From: Bacteroidota bacterium
Lineage (GTDB): Bacteria; Bacteroidota; Bacteroidia; 2-12-FULL-35-15
Direction: 5' to 3'
NCBI GenBank assembly: GCA_037131555.1
Contig: JBAXQU010000003.1
Span: 8,201 to 72,200 of the forward strand
Length of the DNA: 64,000 nucleotides
The notes beneath the pieces are model-generated. The model made no database searches. It saw only the letters and a program-made list of their open reading frames with translations, and was not told the origin of the DNA. Positions 18,952-54,215 of the stretch are shown here, one piece after another (position 1 is the first letter of the stretch; each line of letters opens with the position of its first letter). The position numbers and the translations under genes were made by a program.

Positions 18952-19052
18952 TTCGAACCATATCATCCTTTTAATACAATTAGAATTATTTGTTTGGTTG
19001 CTTATTTCCTGACACAAACCCCACTATACAAAGGTTTCAAGCTTTATTTGTT

Positions 19053-19065
19053 TATATATGTATAG
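19053..19065 (-). repeat. Weaker copy of the AT-alternating box (reverse complement CTATACATATATA)
   Basis: Matches 11 of 13 positions of ATACATATATATA. It lies 58 nt from array A and points away from it. Confidence 0.35.
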
Positions 19066-19123: not shown

Positions 19124-19438
19124 GGTAGTCATTCTCATGGAAATGGCAGCCATTCCCTTGAAGATGGCAGTCATTCTCATGGAAATGGTAGCCATTCTCT
19201 TGAAAAGGGTAGTCATTCCCTTGAAGATAGTAGCCATTCTCTTGAAGATGGTAGCCATTCCCATGAAGATGGTAGCCATTCTCTTGAAGATGGTAGCCAT
19301 TCCCATGAAGATGGTAGTCATTCTCTTGAAGATGGTAGCCATTCCCATGAAGATGGTAGCCATTCCCTTGAAAAGGGTAGCCATTCCCTTGGAAAGGGTA
19401 GTCATTCCCTTGGAAATGGTAGACATATCCACTTAACT
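19124..19438. repeat. Tandem array A: 14 full copies plus 1 degenerate copy of a 21-bp unit (consensus GGTAGCCATTCYCWTGAAGAT)
   Basis: I counted the units one by one, and the phase stays exactly 21 bp from 19124 to 19438. Variation is limited to a few positions. Three overlapping track ORFs (two plus-strand frames, one minus-strand frame) run through the array. Confidence 0.95.
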
Positions 19439-19718
19439 CCCTTTCACTCTCTTCATTTTCACATTGGCATACACCGACATAGCTATCAAATACAAGCAGT
19501 TAAATTGTATACACCCAATCCATACTTTCATTCAAAGAACCATTGCAGAGGCAAAAGTAATTGATTGGTAATGTTGACACAAAATTCGGAACAAAAGCCA
19601 AAATAGAATATGATATATAAGGTTTTTGAAAATAATTTGATTCTTCGATTTTTGAGAAAAAAAGAAAACCTAAACCAGAACCACCCCATTTGGATATTTT
19701 CTTGCCAATCGTAAAACC

Positions 19719-19761
19719 ATACATATATATAAGGTGTGTTTGGGGGGGATTTAAAAAGGTG
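19719..19761 (+). repeat. Conserved box ATACATATATATA-AGGTGTG-N-GGATTTAAAA-GGTG
   Basis: The exact 13-mer ATACATATATATA is shared with 31352-31371 (minus) and 41661-41680 (minus). The GGATTTAAAA..GGTG extension is shared with 31328-31344 (minus). Confidence 0.6.
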
Positions 19762-19932
19762 CGTTAATCTGTAAACAAAAGTGCGTTAATTATTTGGGTA
19801 AATGATATTGAATATTTTAGTAAATTTGTAAGTGCATATATTTATATGTTATGCGTCATTGTGAGAAACGTGCTAACGAAACATTAACGTAATGAAAGGA
19901 ACTTATAGAAACAATTAAAAAACAGAAAGATT

Positions 19933-20442
19933 ATGAAGACAAGAAAAATTATTTTGACTATTTCAATTGCATTATCATTTCATTTATCATCTAATGCACA
20001 AGGTAAAAGAAACGAGCTACCTTTTGATACTGTAAAAAACAAAGTGGCTTGGGTTGGAGAAATTGCAATTAACGGAGGAATATCAAAAAAGGAAGCAATG
20101 ATAAATATAGTTCAATGGGCGTATAAAAATTCATTTAAAATTGAAACGGAAAATGATGAAGCTGGTATTCTTGTATTAGTTGCTTCTATTATGTATGGTA
20201 ATCACAAGGTTGTTGAAAGCAGTGAAAAATTACGCAAAGCACCATTTAAAATATTTTTCGTTTTTAGTGATAAGTCTATCTCTTATAGAATTACAGATAT
20301 GTCTGTAAGTAAGTACCCAATAGAAATTAGATATGAATATTATAAGAAACGTCCTGCAATGGGTTATCATTATGCCTTTATAGACATTAATAAAAGAATT
20401 AATGAACTTATCGTTGATTTTACCAAAGTTAATAACAAGTAA
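19933..20442 (+). CDS. Secreted hypothetical protein, possibly DUF4468-like
   Basis: Signal peptide (MKTRKIILTISIALSFHLSSNAQ). Size and pattern (V.W.GEI...ISKKEA...W) resemble the DUF4468 family. This is a weak call. Confidence 0.4.
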   Translation: MKTRKIILTISIALSFHLSSNAQGKRNELPFDTVKNKVAWVGEIAINGGISKKEAMINIVQWAYKNSFKIETENDEAGILVLVASIMYGNHKVVESSEKLRKAPFKIFFVFSDKSISYRITDMSVSKYPIEIRYEYYKKRPAMGYHYAFIDINKRINELIVDFTKVNNK

Positions 20443-30294: not shown

Positions 30295-31053
30295 TTATTT
30301 TGTTTGTTTCCCTGTAAAAAAAGACTTTATAAACGAAGGATAAAAGTAGTAGCCACTTACTTTACTCTTAAAACTATTCAATGATGTTTTAGGAGTTACT
30401 TCAATTCTTCGTATCTGAAATTTATCGGTGCCAAATTCTTTAGGCCCTGTATTGGTAGATACTGCATATTCGTATCCTGCTTCTTTGGTTATGCGTTTTA
30501 CCTCTTCATTTATTCCTCCAAAAGGATAAGCAAAACTAATCGCTTTTTTATTGGTTAGTTTTTCTACATCATCTTTACATCCTTTTATCTCTTTCCATTT
30601 CTCCTCTGCACTGCATCTCGACAAATCAACGTGCAACTGTGTATGGCCTCCCATTTCAATTCCATAATCACTCATTTCGCGTTTCTGTTCATCCGTCATC
30701 ATCTCCACACGAGGCTCGCCTTCGCGCACCCCCCAAGCATTATGATTGATTTGTGTAACCAAATAAATAACGGCTGTGAAATGGTGTTTCTTCAGCATTG
30801 GAAATAACAAACGATAATTATCTTCATATCCATCGTCAAAAGTAAGAATCACTTTTTTGGTTAAATCTTGATTGGGATTTGCCTGCAAATCGAAAAAAGT
30901 GATGGTTTGGTATCCATTCTCTTTTAGGTAAAGGAGTTGTTTCTCGAGGTCCTTTTGCCAAACAAATATTTTATGTTTACCTCGTGCCGACTCGTTAGTA
31001 ACCACACGATGATAAAGTAAAACCGGTAAACTATAGTTATTTTTCTTTTTCAA
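30295..31053 (-). CDS. Polysaccharide deacetylase (NodB homology domain)
   Basis: LTFDDGYEDNY together with downstream His motifs (GGHTQLH). Confidence 0.85.
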   Translation of the reverse strand: MKKKNNYSLPVLLYHRVVTNESARGKHKIFVWQKDLEKQLLYLKENGYQTITFFDLQANPNQDLTKKVILTFDDGYEDNYRLLFPMLKKHHFTAVIYLVTQINHNAWGVREGEPRVEMMTDEQKREMSDYGIEMGGHTQLHVDLSRCSAEEKWKEIKGCKDDVEKLTNKKAISFAYPFGGINEEVKRITKEAGYEYAVSTNTGPKEFGTDKFQIRRIEVTPKTSLNSFKSKVSGYYFYPSFIKSFFTGKQTK

Positions 31054-31327
31054 TTGAGTTTAATAAAACAACAAGCGCAAAACTAATTAAATTTGTTTAC
31101 AAGGTCTCAATTCTGTTTTAGCTCAAGTATTTATTTATTTTGAAAAATGATTTTTCCTGAAATTGGAGTTTTCATTCACAAGAAGCTGATGTAAAATTTC
31201 CTAAAAAACCTTGTTTTTAACCGGAGTTCTTACTTTGTGGTTCGGTTACATTCGGGGTTCCTTGCAGGTGCAGCCAAATTTCTTCCAAGCCAATTTTTAA
31301 ACCCCTTCCTTTCCAACCCCAAATATA

Positions 31328-31371
31328 CACCAAATTTTAAATCCTCAGCCTACACATATATATATGTATAC
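31328..31371 (-). repeat. Conserved box (reverse complement GTATACATATATATATGTGTAGGCTGAGGATTTAAAATTTGGTG)
   Basis: Contains the exact 13-mer ATACATATATATA and the GGATTTAAAA..GGTG extension shared with 19719-19761. It lies 132 nt from array B and points away from it. Confidence 0.6.
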
Positions 31372-31503
31372 CCAAAATTCCTTTTTAGGCTTAGCCAGAC
31401 GCTATGGTTTGAATTCTTTACCCAAAACGGTGAACGAGAGCAAAAAATTGCGGCAGCAATTGCCCAAAATAGAAAAGGAATTGAAAAAAACGAAAAAAAT
31501 GAC

Positions 31504-31692
31504 TTGCCGCAAGCAAAATTGCAGTTGCCGCAAGCAAAATTGCAATTGCCGCAACCAAAATTGCAGTTGCCGTAACCAAAATTGCAGTTGCCGCAAGCAA
31601 AATTGCAAATGCCGCAAGCAAAATTGCAATTGCCTTAACCAAAATTGCAGTTGCCGTAAGCAAAATTGCATTTGCCGTAAGCAAAATTGCAA
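31504..31692. repeat. Tandem array B: 9 copies of a 21-bp unit (consensus TTGCCGCAAGCAAAATTGCAR)
   Basis: Units counted individually, with exact 21-bp phase. Several unit junctions form GCAATTGC palindromes, and a TTGC-C-GCAA dyad lies within the unit. A partial inverted copy sits at 31448-31466. Several frames on both strands are open. Confidence 0.95.
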
Positions 31693-31928
31693 GTCCACCC
31701 GCTTTTCATCAAAAACCCTAAATTGAGAATTCTGCATTCTGCATTTTTCCCTTTGTGTCTTCGTGGCAACCTTCCAACTTTCAACTTTGAACTAAAATAC
31801 TCATTGCAACCTTTTCACAATTAAAAGAGTCTTGTTGAAAAGCGATTGAAAAGATAATGTGAAAAGAGATAAAAATGAGACAATTGTTTAGTATTTTTGT
31901 TCGCATAAATAGTGTTAATAGTTTAGAA

Positions 31929-41596: not shown

Positions 41597-41660
41597 GGGT
41601 GACTAGCCACAACTCATCCATTTTCTGTAAGAAAGATACAACCCTTTCGCTTCGCCTTGA

Positions 41661-41680
41661 AACACCTATATATATGTATC
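41661..41680 (-). repeat. Conserved box (reverse complement GATACATATATATAGGTGTT)
   Basis: Exact 13-mer ATACATATATATA followed by GGTGT. It lies 210 nt from array C and points away from it. Confidence 0.6.
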
Positions 41681-41890: not shown

Positions 41891-42142
41891 GTCAATATAA
41901 ATAATCATATCGAGTGAAAGTGCGTCCTTTTGGTCAATATAAATAATCATATCGAGTGAAAGTGCGTCCTTTTGGTCAATCTGAATAATCATATCGAGTG
42001 AAAGCGCGCACTTTTGGTCAATCTGAATAATCATATCGAGTGAAAGTGCGTCCTTTTGGTCAATATGAATAATCATATCGAGTGAAAGTGCGCACTTTTG
42101 GTCAATATGAATAATTAAATCGAGTGAAAGTGCGTCCTTTCA
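41891..42142. repeat. Tandem array C: 6 copies of a 42-bp unit (GTCAATMTRAATAATCATATC + GAGTGAAAGYGCGYMCTTTTG)
   Basis: Units start at 41891, 41933, 41975, 42017, 42059 and 42101. Units 3 and 5 contain the 14-bp perfect palindrome AAAGTGCGCACTTT. Degenerate GAAAG..CACTTT half-units extend left to about 41825. Confidence 0.95.
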
Positions 42143-53929: not shown

Positions 53930-54215
53930 GAGGGTCTGGATAGCCGTTATGCAGACCTGCATAGCTCCTTTGCAGAGGATGTTTTTCGCTTTGCGAAGGT
54001 TGCAAAGTCATTTTCAGGGTCTGCATACTGCTTATTCAGTAATGCAAAGCTCTTAACAGGGTCTGCATAGCTCTTATGCAGTACTGCAAAACAATTATGC
54101 AGTACTGCATAACTCTTAACAGGGTCTGGATAGCTCTTATGCAGTACTGCATAACGACTATCCAGTACTGCAAAACCCTTAACAGGGTCCTCATAAAGGC
54201 TATGCAGAGCCTCAA
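53930..54215. repeat. Tandem array D: about 13 degenerate 21-bp units forming 42-bp superunits (GCAGTACTGCAWAAC.CTTAA + CAGGGTCTGSATAGCTCTTAT)
   Basis: The 10-bp palindrome GCAGTACTGC occurs at 54078, 54099 and 54141, with variants at 54036 and 54162. Related GCAG.. starts at 53951, 53972 and 53993 are all on the same 21-bp register. A TGCATA-N5-TATGCA dyad lies in the alternate unit. Confidence 0.85.

Follow-up and report, generated by a model that had tools for sequence, protein, structure and literature searches.

The box and its neighbouring arrays in the window

The stretch of DNA analysed here, the window, comprises 64,000 nucleotides (nt) of contig JBAXQU010000003.1 (assembly GCA_037131555.1), from an uncultured lake Bacteroidota lineage. 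Tandem arrays were called with Tandem Repeats Finder (TRF), and four of them, named A to D, were found in long intergenic regions of the window amid ordinary genes (folP, polysaccharide deacetylase, fadL and secA). Three of the arrays lie near an exact copy of a 13-nt sequence, ATACATATATATA, which together with its surroundings is the subject of this work and is hereafter called the box. The features concerned are as follows.

19719–19731, plus strand: exact box, copy A, inside the tail module of an array-less head-and-tail copy of the 42-nt AAAACGTTACTTTGGGCAG array family
31357–31369, minus strand: exact box, copy B, core of the palindrome TATACATATATATATGTGTA
41667–41679, minus strand: exact box, copy C
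19124–19426: array A, 21 nt x 14.4, unit GGTAGCCATTCCCTTGAAGAT
31504–31691: array B, period 21/63; 21 nt x 9, unit CTGCAATTTTGCTTGCGGCAA on the minus strand
41891–42140: array C, 42 nt x 6
54031–54189: array D, period 21/63
19051–19063, minus strand: weak box-like match left of array A, with 12/13 matches (2 mismatches in a paralogue on contig C2)
53854–53870, plus strand: loose relative, ATACTATATAATAGTGT followed by ATTTTTA, resembling a degenerate copy in which the box abuts a -7 box; in a convergent intergenic region, with array D on its 3' side

The three exact copies described in the initial annotation were all recovered, the ranges first given for those at 31.3 and 41.7 kb having taken in GTGT bases after the box. 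Read in box orientation, the array lies 5' of all three exact copies, at measured distances of 292, 134 and 211 nt for A, B and C, respectively, close to the 280, 132 and 210 nt claimed before. The GGATTTAAAA..GGTG extension said to be common to the 19.7-kb and 31.3-kb copies is likewise real. The two more distant relatives fared less well. The weak match left of array A shows no flanking homology to other copies and is not supported as a member of the family. The relative beside array D is present but loose, and the position of that array on its 3' side breaks the geometry proposed; no TAnnTTTG follows it. Scanning the window against Rfam (gathering threshold) and for tRNAs returned no hit. 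The units of array B (31519–31702, minus strand) each form a small TTGCGGCAA-CTGCAA-TTTT hairpin that was repeatedly flagged by a terminator scan. A scan of region B for sigma-70-type promoters and terminators was uninformative.

Recurrence of the box and its association with arrays

Taken alone, the window shows only a mild enrichment, with nine matches to the box at up to two mismatches versus 3.4 expected, a number reached by 2 of 100 shuffles. The source genome, G000 (3.36 Mb, 37% G+C, in 180 contigs denoted by C-numbers), contains 24 exact copies of ATACATATATATA, where about one would be expected by our own arithmetic from base composition, and a reversed-sequence control gave none. The recurrence of the box is therefore real and far from random. 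Raw genome counts are nevertheless inflated by a coding coincidence. Four of the 24 exact copies (C28:20175, C34:18280-18492, C41:24767 and C125:6757) are coding, and specify the peptide S-I-H-I-Y-N-V-L-G in C-terminal sorting domains of the type IX secretion system (T9SS); this version reads TCC ATA CAT ATA TAT AAT GT and is also found at about 10 loci of G033, the closest genome. These copies, considered as a 'subfamily 2' of the 13-mer, were rejected as T9SS SIHIYNVLG coding sequence unrelated to the intergenic box.

With a few further exact copies lying in or near open reading frames (ORFs), about 17 distinct intergenic sites are left. An array of 21- or 42-nt period lies within 300 nt on the 5' side of the box at 13 of these sites, and on the 3' side at one. 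A random intergenic position has a 7.3% chance of an array per side, so that the 5' association has a binomial p of 3e-12, and the 13:1 split in orientation is itself uneven (p = 0.002). Since the copies are related to each other, the independent count is only about six unrelated array families, all on the same side. The search for enrichment within 300 nt of tandem repeats that the initial annotation had proposed thus bears out both the association and its polarity, and the 13-mer was not found to be frequent genome-wide without a link to arrays.

The box forms part of a cassette with a promoter-like architecture

The intergenic copies fall into groups according to their flanking sequences, and a profile built from seven copies recovered a module of about 75 nt, consisting of the box, about 8 nt, TTTG, about 18 nt with GGATTTAAAATTTG, and TGTATATTTG. 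When 13 copies were aligned (nine from G000, the 31.3-kb copy among them, and four from G033), the sequence GTATATTTG proved invariant, lying 27–29 nt downstream of the box with TTTG between; the next-best conserved blocks are the box and ATTTAAAA.TTG. Across subfamilies no conservation was detected upstream of the box in this alignment, and similarity fades past the -7 box. The element TATATTTG fits TAnnTTTG, the -7 motif of Bacteroidota sigma-A promoters, and in the copies on C15, C46, C57 and C101 the -33 TTTG ends 18–21 nt upstream of the TA of the -7 box (hand count). Transcription start site (TSS) maps of Flavobacterium place the -7 box at -12 to -5 and the TSS about 5 nt after it (PMC9723704). 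The TAnnTTTG motif is heavily used in G000, with 754 occurrences in 1448 upstream regions and an AT-rich shoulder at -4..-10. In a second arrangement the box directly abuts the -7 box (...ATAC[AT]TATATATATAGTATATTTG...), as observed on C6, C158, C2:62728 and C64 and at five loci of G006, a related genome.

Combined, these features indicate that the box is most likely not a free-standing signal, and instead forms the 5' edge of a cassette of about 75 nt (box, about 8 nt, TTTG, about 18 nt, TATATTTG). The initial annotation had held that the box is not the TAnnTTTG promoter motif of Bacteroidota, which is correct for the 13-mer itself, but the box is physically tied to a canonical promoter sequence of that type. 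The corresponding features of the three window copies are listed below.

31290–31392, minus strand: complete predicted promoter cassette, copy B, with GGAATTTTGGGT, box, GCTG at the -33 position, GGATTTAAAATTTGG, -7 box and G-rich leader (nhmmer E = 7e-16)
31320–31327, minus strand: -7 box TATATTTG of cassette B, 29 nt downstream of the box, aimed at the polysaccharide deacetylase gene (30295–31053, minus strand)
31078–31085, minus strand: second, gene-proximal -7 box TAGTTTTG of the deacetylase gene, in a region conserved in G033 up to 31119
41631–41666, minus strand: decayed cassette remainder, copy C, with TTTC for TTTG and TGTATCTTTC (8/10 to TGTATATTTG) 26 nt after the box
19739–19742, plus strand: TTTG after box A at a -33-like position, read from the sequence and aligned with other copies
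19759–19790, plus strand: two GTGCGTTAAT direct repeats, 22 nt apart (GTGCGTTAAT-N12-GTGCGTTAAT), replacing the -7 region of the cassette
19821–19828, plus strand: canonical -7 box TAAATTTG, 105 nt upstream of the ATG at 19933 and conserved in the C2 paralogue

Cassette B is homologous to locus L060 of G033. Copy C faces the 3' end of a convergent gene of 3053 amino acids, and its -7 position reads TATCTTTC, which is no match to TAnnTTTG. The pair of GTGCGTTAAT repeats found in copy A is also present in other copies of the same type (C2:52968-53000 and C123) and may constitute a binding site, and the -7 box at 19821–19828 is likely the working promoter, as predicted from sequence, of the downstream gene, which encodes a 169-amino-acid protein with a signal peptide.

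Integrity of the -7 box correlates with the orientation of the next gene

Of 15 box sites that have a co-oriented gene downstream, 13 retain an intact -7 box, compared with none of the 10 sites that face the end of a gene (Fisher p = 2e-5). The co-oriented genes start 88–560 nt away and their products are mostly proteins with signal peptides; the two exceptions among the 15 are copy A of the window and its paralogue. The -7 box is kept where it would be useful and has decayed elsewhere, which, as indirect evidence, is the pattern expected of a dispersed promoter under local selection.

The cassette as the tail of modular array-bearing repeats

Members of the 42-nt array family (on C15, C63, C30, C141 and C6) have a conserved head, six or seven units of 42 nt, and a likewise conserved tail, at whose end the box and the predicted promoter lie. 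In copy A and on C2, head and tail of this family abut with zero units between. In the window these modules belong to a larger composite element.

19596–19662, plus strand: head module of the 42-nt family, which holds the box-like GATATATAAGGTTTTTG and abuts the tail
19663–19755, plus strand: tail module, 84–92% match to C63, C30, C141 and C15
18995–19850, plus strand: composite element A (about 855 nt), comprising left flank, 21-nt array, spacer, head and tail with box, and leader

A paralogue of element A at C2:52227-53060 is about 95% identical in both flanks, the array unit alone differing. Units of the two paralogues (GGTAGCCATTCCCTTGAAGAT vs GGTAGGCACAATCATCATTAT) differ at 11 of 21 positions, so that divergence of the units between nearly identical flanks implies that the units of each array have changed in concert. 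No terminal inverted repeats were detected at the ends of element A (18995 and about 19850), which are set by the C2 paralogue. Other array families with spacers of their own end in the same box, namely CTAATTAGG-type 42-mers, TCAATGGTAATGATGTTGTTG, CGTTTAATCTTTTTTCGTTTC, and arrays B and C. In all, at least six unrelated array units are represented, and the array is 5' of the box at 13 of 14 array-linked sites. This polarity would follow if the cassette is the 3' end of an array-bearing element and fires outward.

As a separate observation, the 42-nt units (C15:30897-31156, C63:19619-19920, C30:20563-20864, C141:1097-1438 and C6:20997-21339) alternate between two forms, one of which holds TACTTTTG; this matches TAnnTTTG perfectly and is co-oriented with the predicted tail promoter, generating a row of -7-box look-alikes.

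The arrays themselves are far more numerous than the box. G000 has about 185 tandem arrays of period 21, 42, 63 or 84 (TRF called 160 loci with period 21 and 54 with period 42), and every family has its own unit; a further 58 heptamer and 36 14-mer arrays are present. About half of the intergenic regions longer than 400 nt hold an array, and no type of intergenic region is free of them, convergent ones included (28/116). As a class, the arrays are not promoter devices. The possibility that outward promoters lie generally beside all arrays was considered and rejected, the outward excess of TAnnTTTG (111 vs 65) being explained by ordinary gene promoters.

Distribution in related genomes

Thirty related genomes were sampled, of which 18 belong to the same genus. 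The box was found expanded in G006 (32 hits) and G007 (14 hits), which are among the closest to G000 (24) by FadL identity, and the other genomes had 0–2 hits. The closest genome, G033, is a metagenome-assembled genome of an 'uncultured Bacteroidetes' with 91–98% nucleotide identity in genes, and it gave 33 hits of the same subfamilies. Expansion of the cassette is limited to these four related uncultured genomes (G000, G006, G007 and G033), and the architecture of the cassette is also observed in G033 and G006.

Orthologous loci were also compared between G000 and G033. At the C9 locus, gene and cassette are 97.7% identical and the array has 4 vs 7 units. At the folP and fadL loci, G033 has different arrays, and homology ends at the ends of the genes. 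The G033 regions after folP and before fadL (L001:5905-6360; G033:C217:1-200, L055) share one array family, TGTAGAAATGGATTTGGGTGG and variants, each array being preceded by GAAATGAAAAG[G/T]GGGG, and these arrays are wholly unlike arrays A and C at the same G000 loci. Locus B has a recognisable orthologue in G033, diverged (75–86% identity) and with extra DNA inserted. No clean empty site was found in the orthologous intergenic regions of G033, which are rearranged or carry other arrays. Eleven congeneric genomes lack array C upstream of their fadL orthologues; no non-coding DNA could be aligned there (61–69% protein identity), and no empty site was obtained.

Phage and plasmid collections gave no match to cassette B. 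Metagenomes were scanned with the pattern box-N22-32-TGTATATTTG, which is too low in complexity: nearly all of at least 119 hits were eukaryote-like TA/TG microsatellite DNA, and the only true homologues were L088 and L106, each of which has its array 5' of the box. Array counts in this microsatellite-swamped set (5/63 vs 6/68) are therefore meaningless for the box family.

A proposed portable promoter cassette and its alternatives

On balance, the box is probably the conserved 5' core of a portable, lineage-specific sigma-A promoter cassette that forms the outward tail of modular array repeats. A short promoter cassette of about 75–120 nt would have been copied to many places of the genome, with a layout of box (an imperfect palindrome, ACA-(TA)4-7-TGT), about 8 nt, TTTG at -33, about 18 nt, TATATTTG at -7, and a G-rich leader. 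If transcription starts about 5 nt past the -7 box, as in Flavobacterium (PMC9723704), the box would span approximately -54 to -42, where an UP-like element or an activator or operator site would act. As the outward tail of intergenic repeats built from head, tandem array and tail, the cassette would fire away from the array into whatever sequence comes next. Where a gene in the same direction follows, the promoter would be kept; where the end of a gene follows, the -33 and -7 elements would decay until the box alone is recognisable, as at 41.7 kb. The (TA)n core is in addition the seam at which upstream (array and tail) and downstream (promoter and leader) modules were exchanged. For the contribution of the box itself three options could apply, namely an UP-like element, an operator, or a seam alone.

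Several points weigh against this interpretation. Copy A is devoid of the -7 box of the cassette. At copy B the cassette promoter may be redundant, because GCTG stands at -33 and the deacetylase gene has the second, proximal -7 box. A TA-alternating tract is found at -60..-25 in just 26 of the 754 upstream -7 boxes, hence the box is no general promoter feature in G000, and with only about 10% of the approximately 185 arrays having a box, it is no general component of arrays either. The box lies 27–29 nt from the -7 box, abuts it, or lies about 90 nt upstream of it (copy A), so that no single fixed role, such as that of an UP element, fits all copies; an UP-like position (about -54 to -42) fits the common type of cassette, not the abutting type or copy A. 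The copies were found through the box, and its survival in decayed copies is therefore in part an ascertainment effect. Finally, the gene calls on which the orientation analysis relies are crude longest-ORF calls.

The relationship of the box to module boundaries was analyzed by an all-versus-all comparison of the regions extending 200 nt to either side of the copies, which revealed two classes of pairwise match. Matches of the first class start at box position 0 and run 40–63 nt downstream, corresponding to a shared promoter region with different upstream sequences; those of the second begin at -56 or -200 and end a few nt beyond the box, corresponding to a shared tail with different downstream sequences. 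The copies on C10 and C62 illustrate the latter, being about 95% identical through the last TA and unrelated beyond it. Because homology starts or stops at the box, it is also a junction where modules were exchanged. The earlier suggestion that the box is a recognition site survives in this respect, as a junction at which homology between copies begins or ends exactly.

These data raise the alternative that the box is a recombination seam and nothing else, that is, a (TA)n run flanked by ACA and TGT at which illegitimate or microhomology-mediated exchange, or else insertion, preferentially takes place, so that unrelated modules (arrays, tails and promoters) come to be joined there, and which has no role in expression. 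Variation of (TA)n from 4 to 7 among copies, persistence of the box beside arrays where the promoter is gone, and loss of synteny with the closest genome in these intergenic regions are all in its favour. However, a passive hot spot does not explain the conserved ATAC-A before the TA run and the TGTAT that often follows it, the fixed 27–29 nt to an invariant -7 box in 13 copies, or the fixed polarity relative to arrays. We consider this alternative unlikely.

The 13-mer was confirmed to be part of a palindrome, which in the best copies reads TATACA-(TA)4-5-TGTATA, and the box may be a protein recognition site. The palindrome could be the operator of a dimeric transcription factor that co-regulates the genes behind the cassettes (mostly secreted proteins or lipoproteins of unknown function), the arrays being incidental. 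Perfect or near-perfect palindromes of 18–20 nt in the best copies, a location just upstream of or overlapping -33 that suits an activator or a repressor, and the prevalence of signal-peptide proteins among the products of downstream genes agree with such a function. It is at odds with the spacing of the arms, which shifts with (TA)n length, with the poor right arm of A-type copies (AAGGTGTG), and with a distance to the -7 box that differs between cassette types. In addition, the downstream genes have no recognisable common function and no candidate factor was identified. We consider a dedicated operator decidedly improbable.

A still smaller likelihood is assigned to the box as the site of action of machinery responsible for building or moving the 21/42-nt arrays, for example the nick or recognition site of a recombinase or of an HUH-type nuclease. 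Its fixed polarity with at least six sequence-unrelated array families would fit such a site, as would its retention beside arrays in convergent intergenic regions and the frequent proximity of sampled box sites to arrays in the four genomes where the box is expanded. By contrast, some 90% of the arrays lack a box within 300 nt, array and box are separated by 24 to 300 nt of unrelated filler, and boxes without arrays exist (C46 and C10:57821); no associated enzyme gene was found, nor successfully sought. A related and equally slim prospect is an unknown process by which these arrays are created, extended or transposed and for which the box provides a polar site of recognition or initiation; the promoter cassette would then be a passenger, or have been co-opted later. 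Such a process would account for the position of unrelated arrays on one side of the box and for the break in homology exactly there.

That the box is a structural element which melts or extrudes as a cruciform, as the initial annotation had proposed in view of its alternating core, appears extremely unlikely. The TA step is the one most easily unwound and some copies are palindromic (14–20 nt, of A-T pairs), but A-type copies are barely so, and in the four boxes tested the hairpins comprised 5–8 A-T-rich pairs with -1.5 to -3.5 kcal/mol and z-scores of +0.7 to -2.9, two of them being no better than shuffles; extrusion of a cruciform at the box is thus poorly supported. Lastly, the units of array A and its C2 paralogue are both His-rich in one frame (GSHSLED vs GRHNHHY), with variable positions mostly at third codon positions, and arrays could be read as ORFs of His-rich heptads that are followed by the box as a signal, a reading opposed by the lack of an ATG in that frame of the C2 paralogue and by the occurrence of arrays in all types of intergenic region.

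Comparison with known repeats and promoters

The Correia elements of Neisseria (CREE) are short dispersed intergenic repeats with outward promoters at their ends, which alter adjacent expression and mark rearrangements between strains (PMC2649163). The cassette resembles them as a dispersed, promoter-bearing intergenic repeat, its promoter being predicted from sequence. Correia elements are about 100–150 bp long and have terminal inverted repeats, a TA target duplication and a site for integration host factor, whereas element A has no terminal inverted repeats and the box cassette differs in its Bacteroidota -33/-7 promoter and in its attachment to long 21/42-nt arrays. In organization, the array-bearing repeats are closer to the BOX elements of pneumococcus (boxA-(boxB)n-boxC), which are also dispersed, intergenic, and built from a head, variable tandem internal units and a tail. 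No sequence relationship to BOX was found in the Rfam scan of the window, and the internal units described here belong to many unrelated families, keep a strict 21/42-nt period and are followed by a tail with an explicit predicted promoter. The cassette would work like Correia elements and is organised like BOX, and is a member of neither, because it has no terminal inverted repeats, no homology to them and a different type of promoter.

Compared with a Bacteroidota sigma-A promoter preceded by an A+T-rich upstream element, the cassette shares the invariant TATATTTG, usually TTTG 18–19 nt upstream of it and, in the common type, a box near the UP position. Instead of a simple A+T-rich tract, however, the box is a specific conserved 13-mer with palindromic character, and in other copies it occupies the spacer beside the -7 box. 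Tracts of (TA)n are found in phase-variable promoters, such as that of hifA and hifB in Haemophilus influenzae. A slippage-prone (TA)n of 4–7 repeats likewise lies inside the predicted promoter in the abutting copies (on C6, C158 and at the G006 loci), but the runs are short, and in the common type of cassette they are located upstream of -33. Two orthologous loci were compared between these runs in G000 and G033, and n had not changed by slippage at either.

A literature search on 21-bp repeats and on promoter-bearing repeats in Bacteroidota returned nothing specific. We know of no description in this phylum of the mobile-promoter dynamic documented in Neisseria, although no systematic search for one was made. 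The box accounts for the apparent polarity of a subset of the 21/42-nt arrays in this lineage, and some array-bearing repeats would bring a ready-made sigma-A promoter to neighbouring genes, a promoter that decays where no gene needs one. The repeats are also of practical relevance in that they break assemblies, with 62 of the 185 arrays and many box copies at contig ends, and they coincide with loss of synteny between close genomes. While the box alone is of moderate interest, the approximately 185 strictly periodic arrays are a far stranger puzzle that it does not explain.

Other dispersed repeats

Several short repeat families are enriched beside arrays. One of them is a dispersed element of about 90 nt with a GC-rich hairpin (…GGAAATCCTTTTTCTTTGCCC…GGGCAAAGAAAAAG…), present at L001:6186-6277 and at about 40 places of G000 (e.g. 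C3:79807-79896), many of them at contig ends. A second dispersed family with a promoter-like sequence and a leader, GTATATTTGGGGGATGAAAAAAGTGGnGTATATAATGAGTCGTTCGTTTGCAGGTGA, is devoid of the box and has at least 15 copies in G000 (C14:15044, C39:16215, C24:16974, C7:10738, C55:241, C2:62044, C65:17895, C18:22506, C115:361 and others); it could represent a family of small RNAs or leaders.

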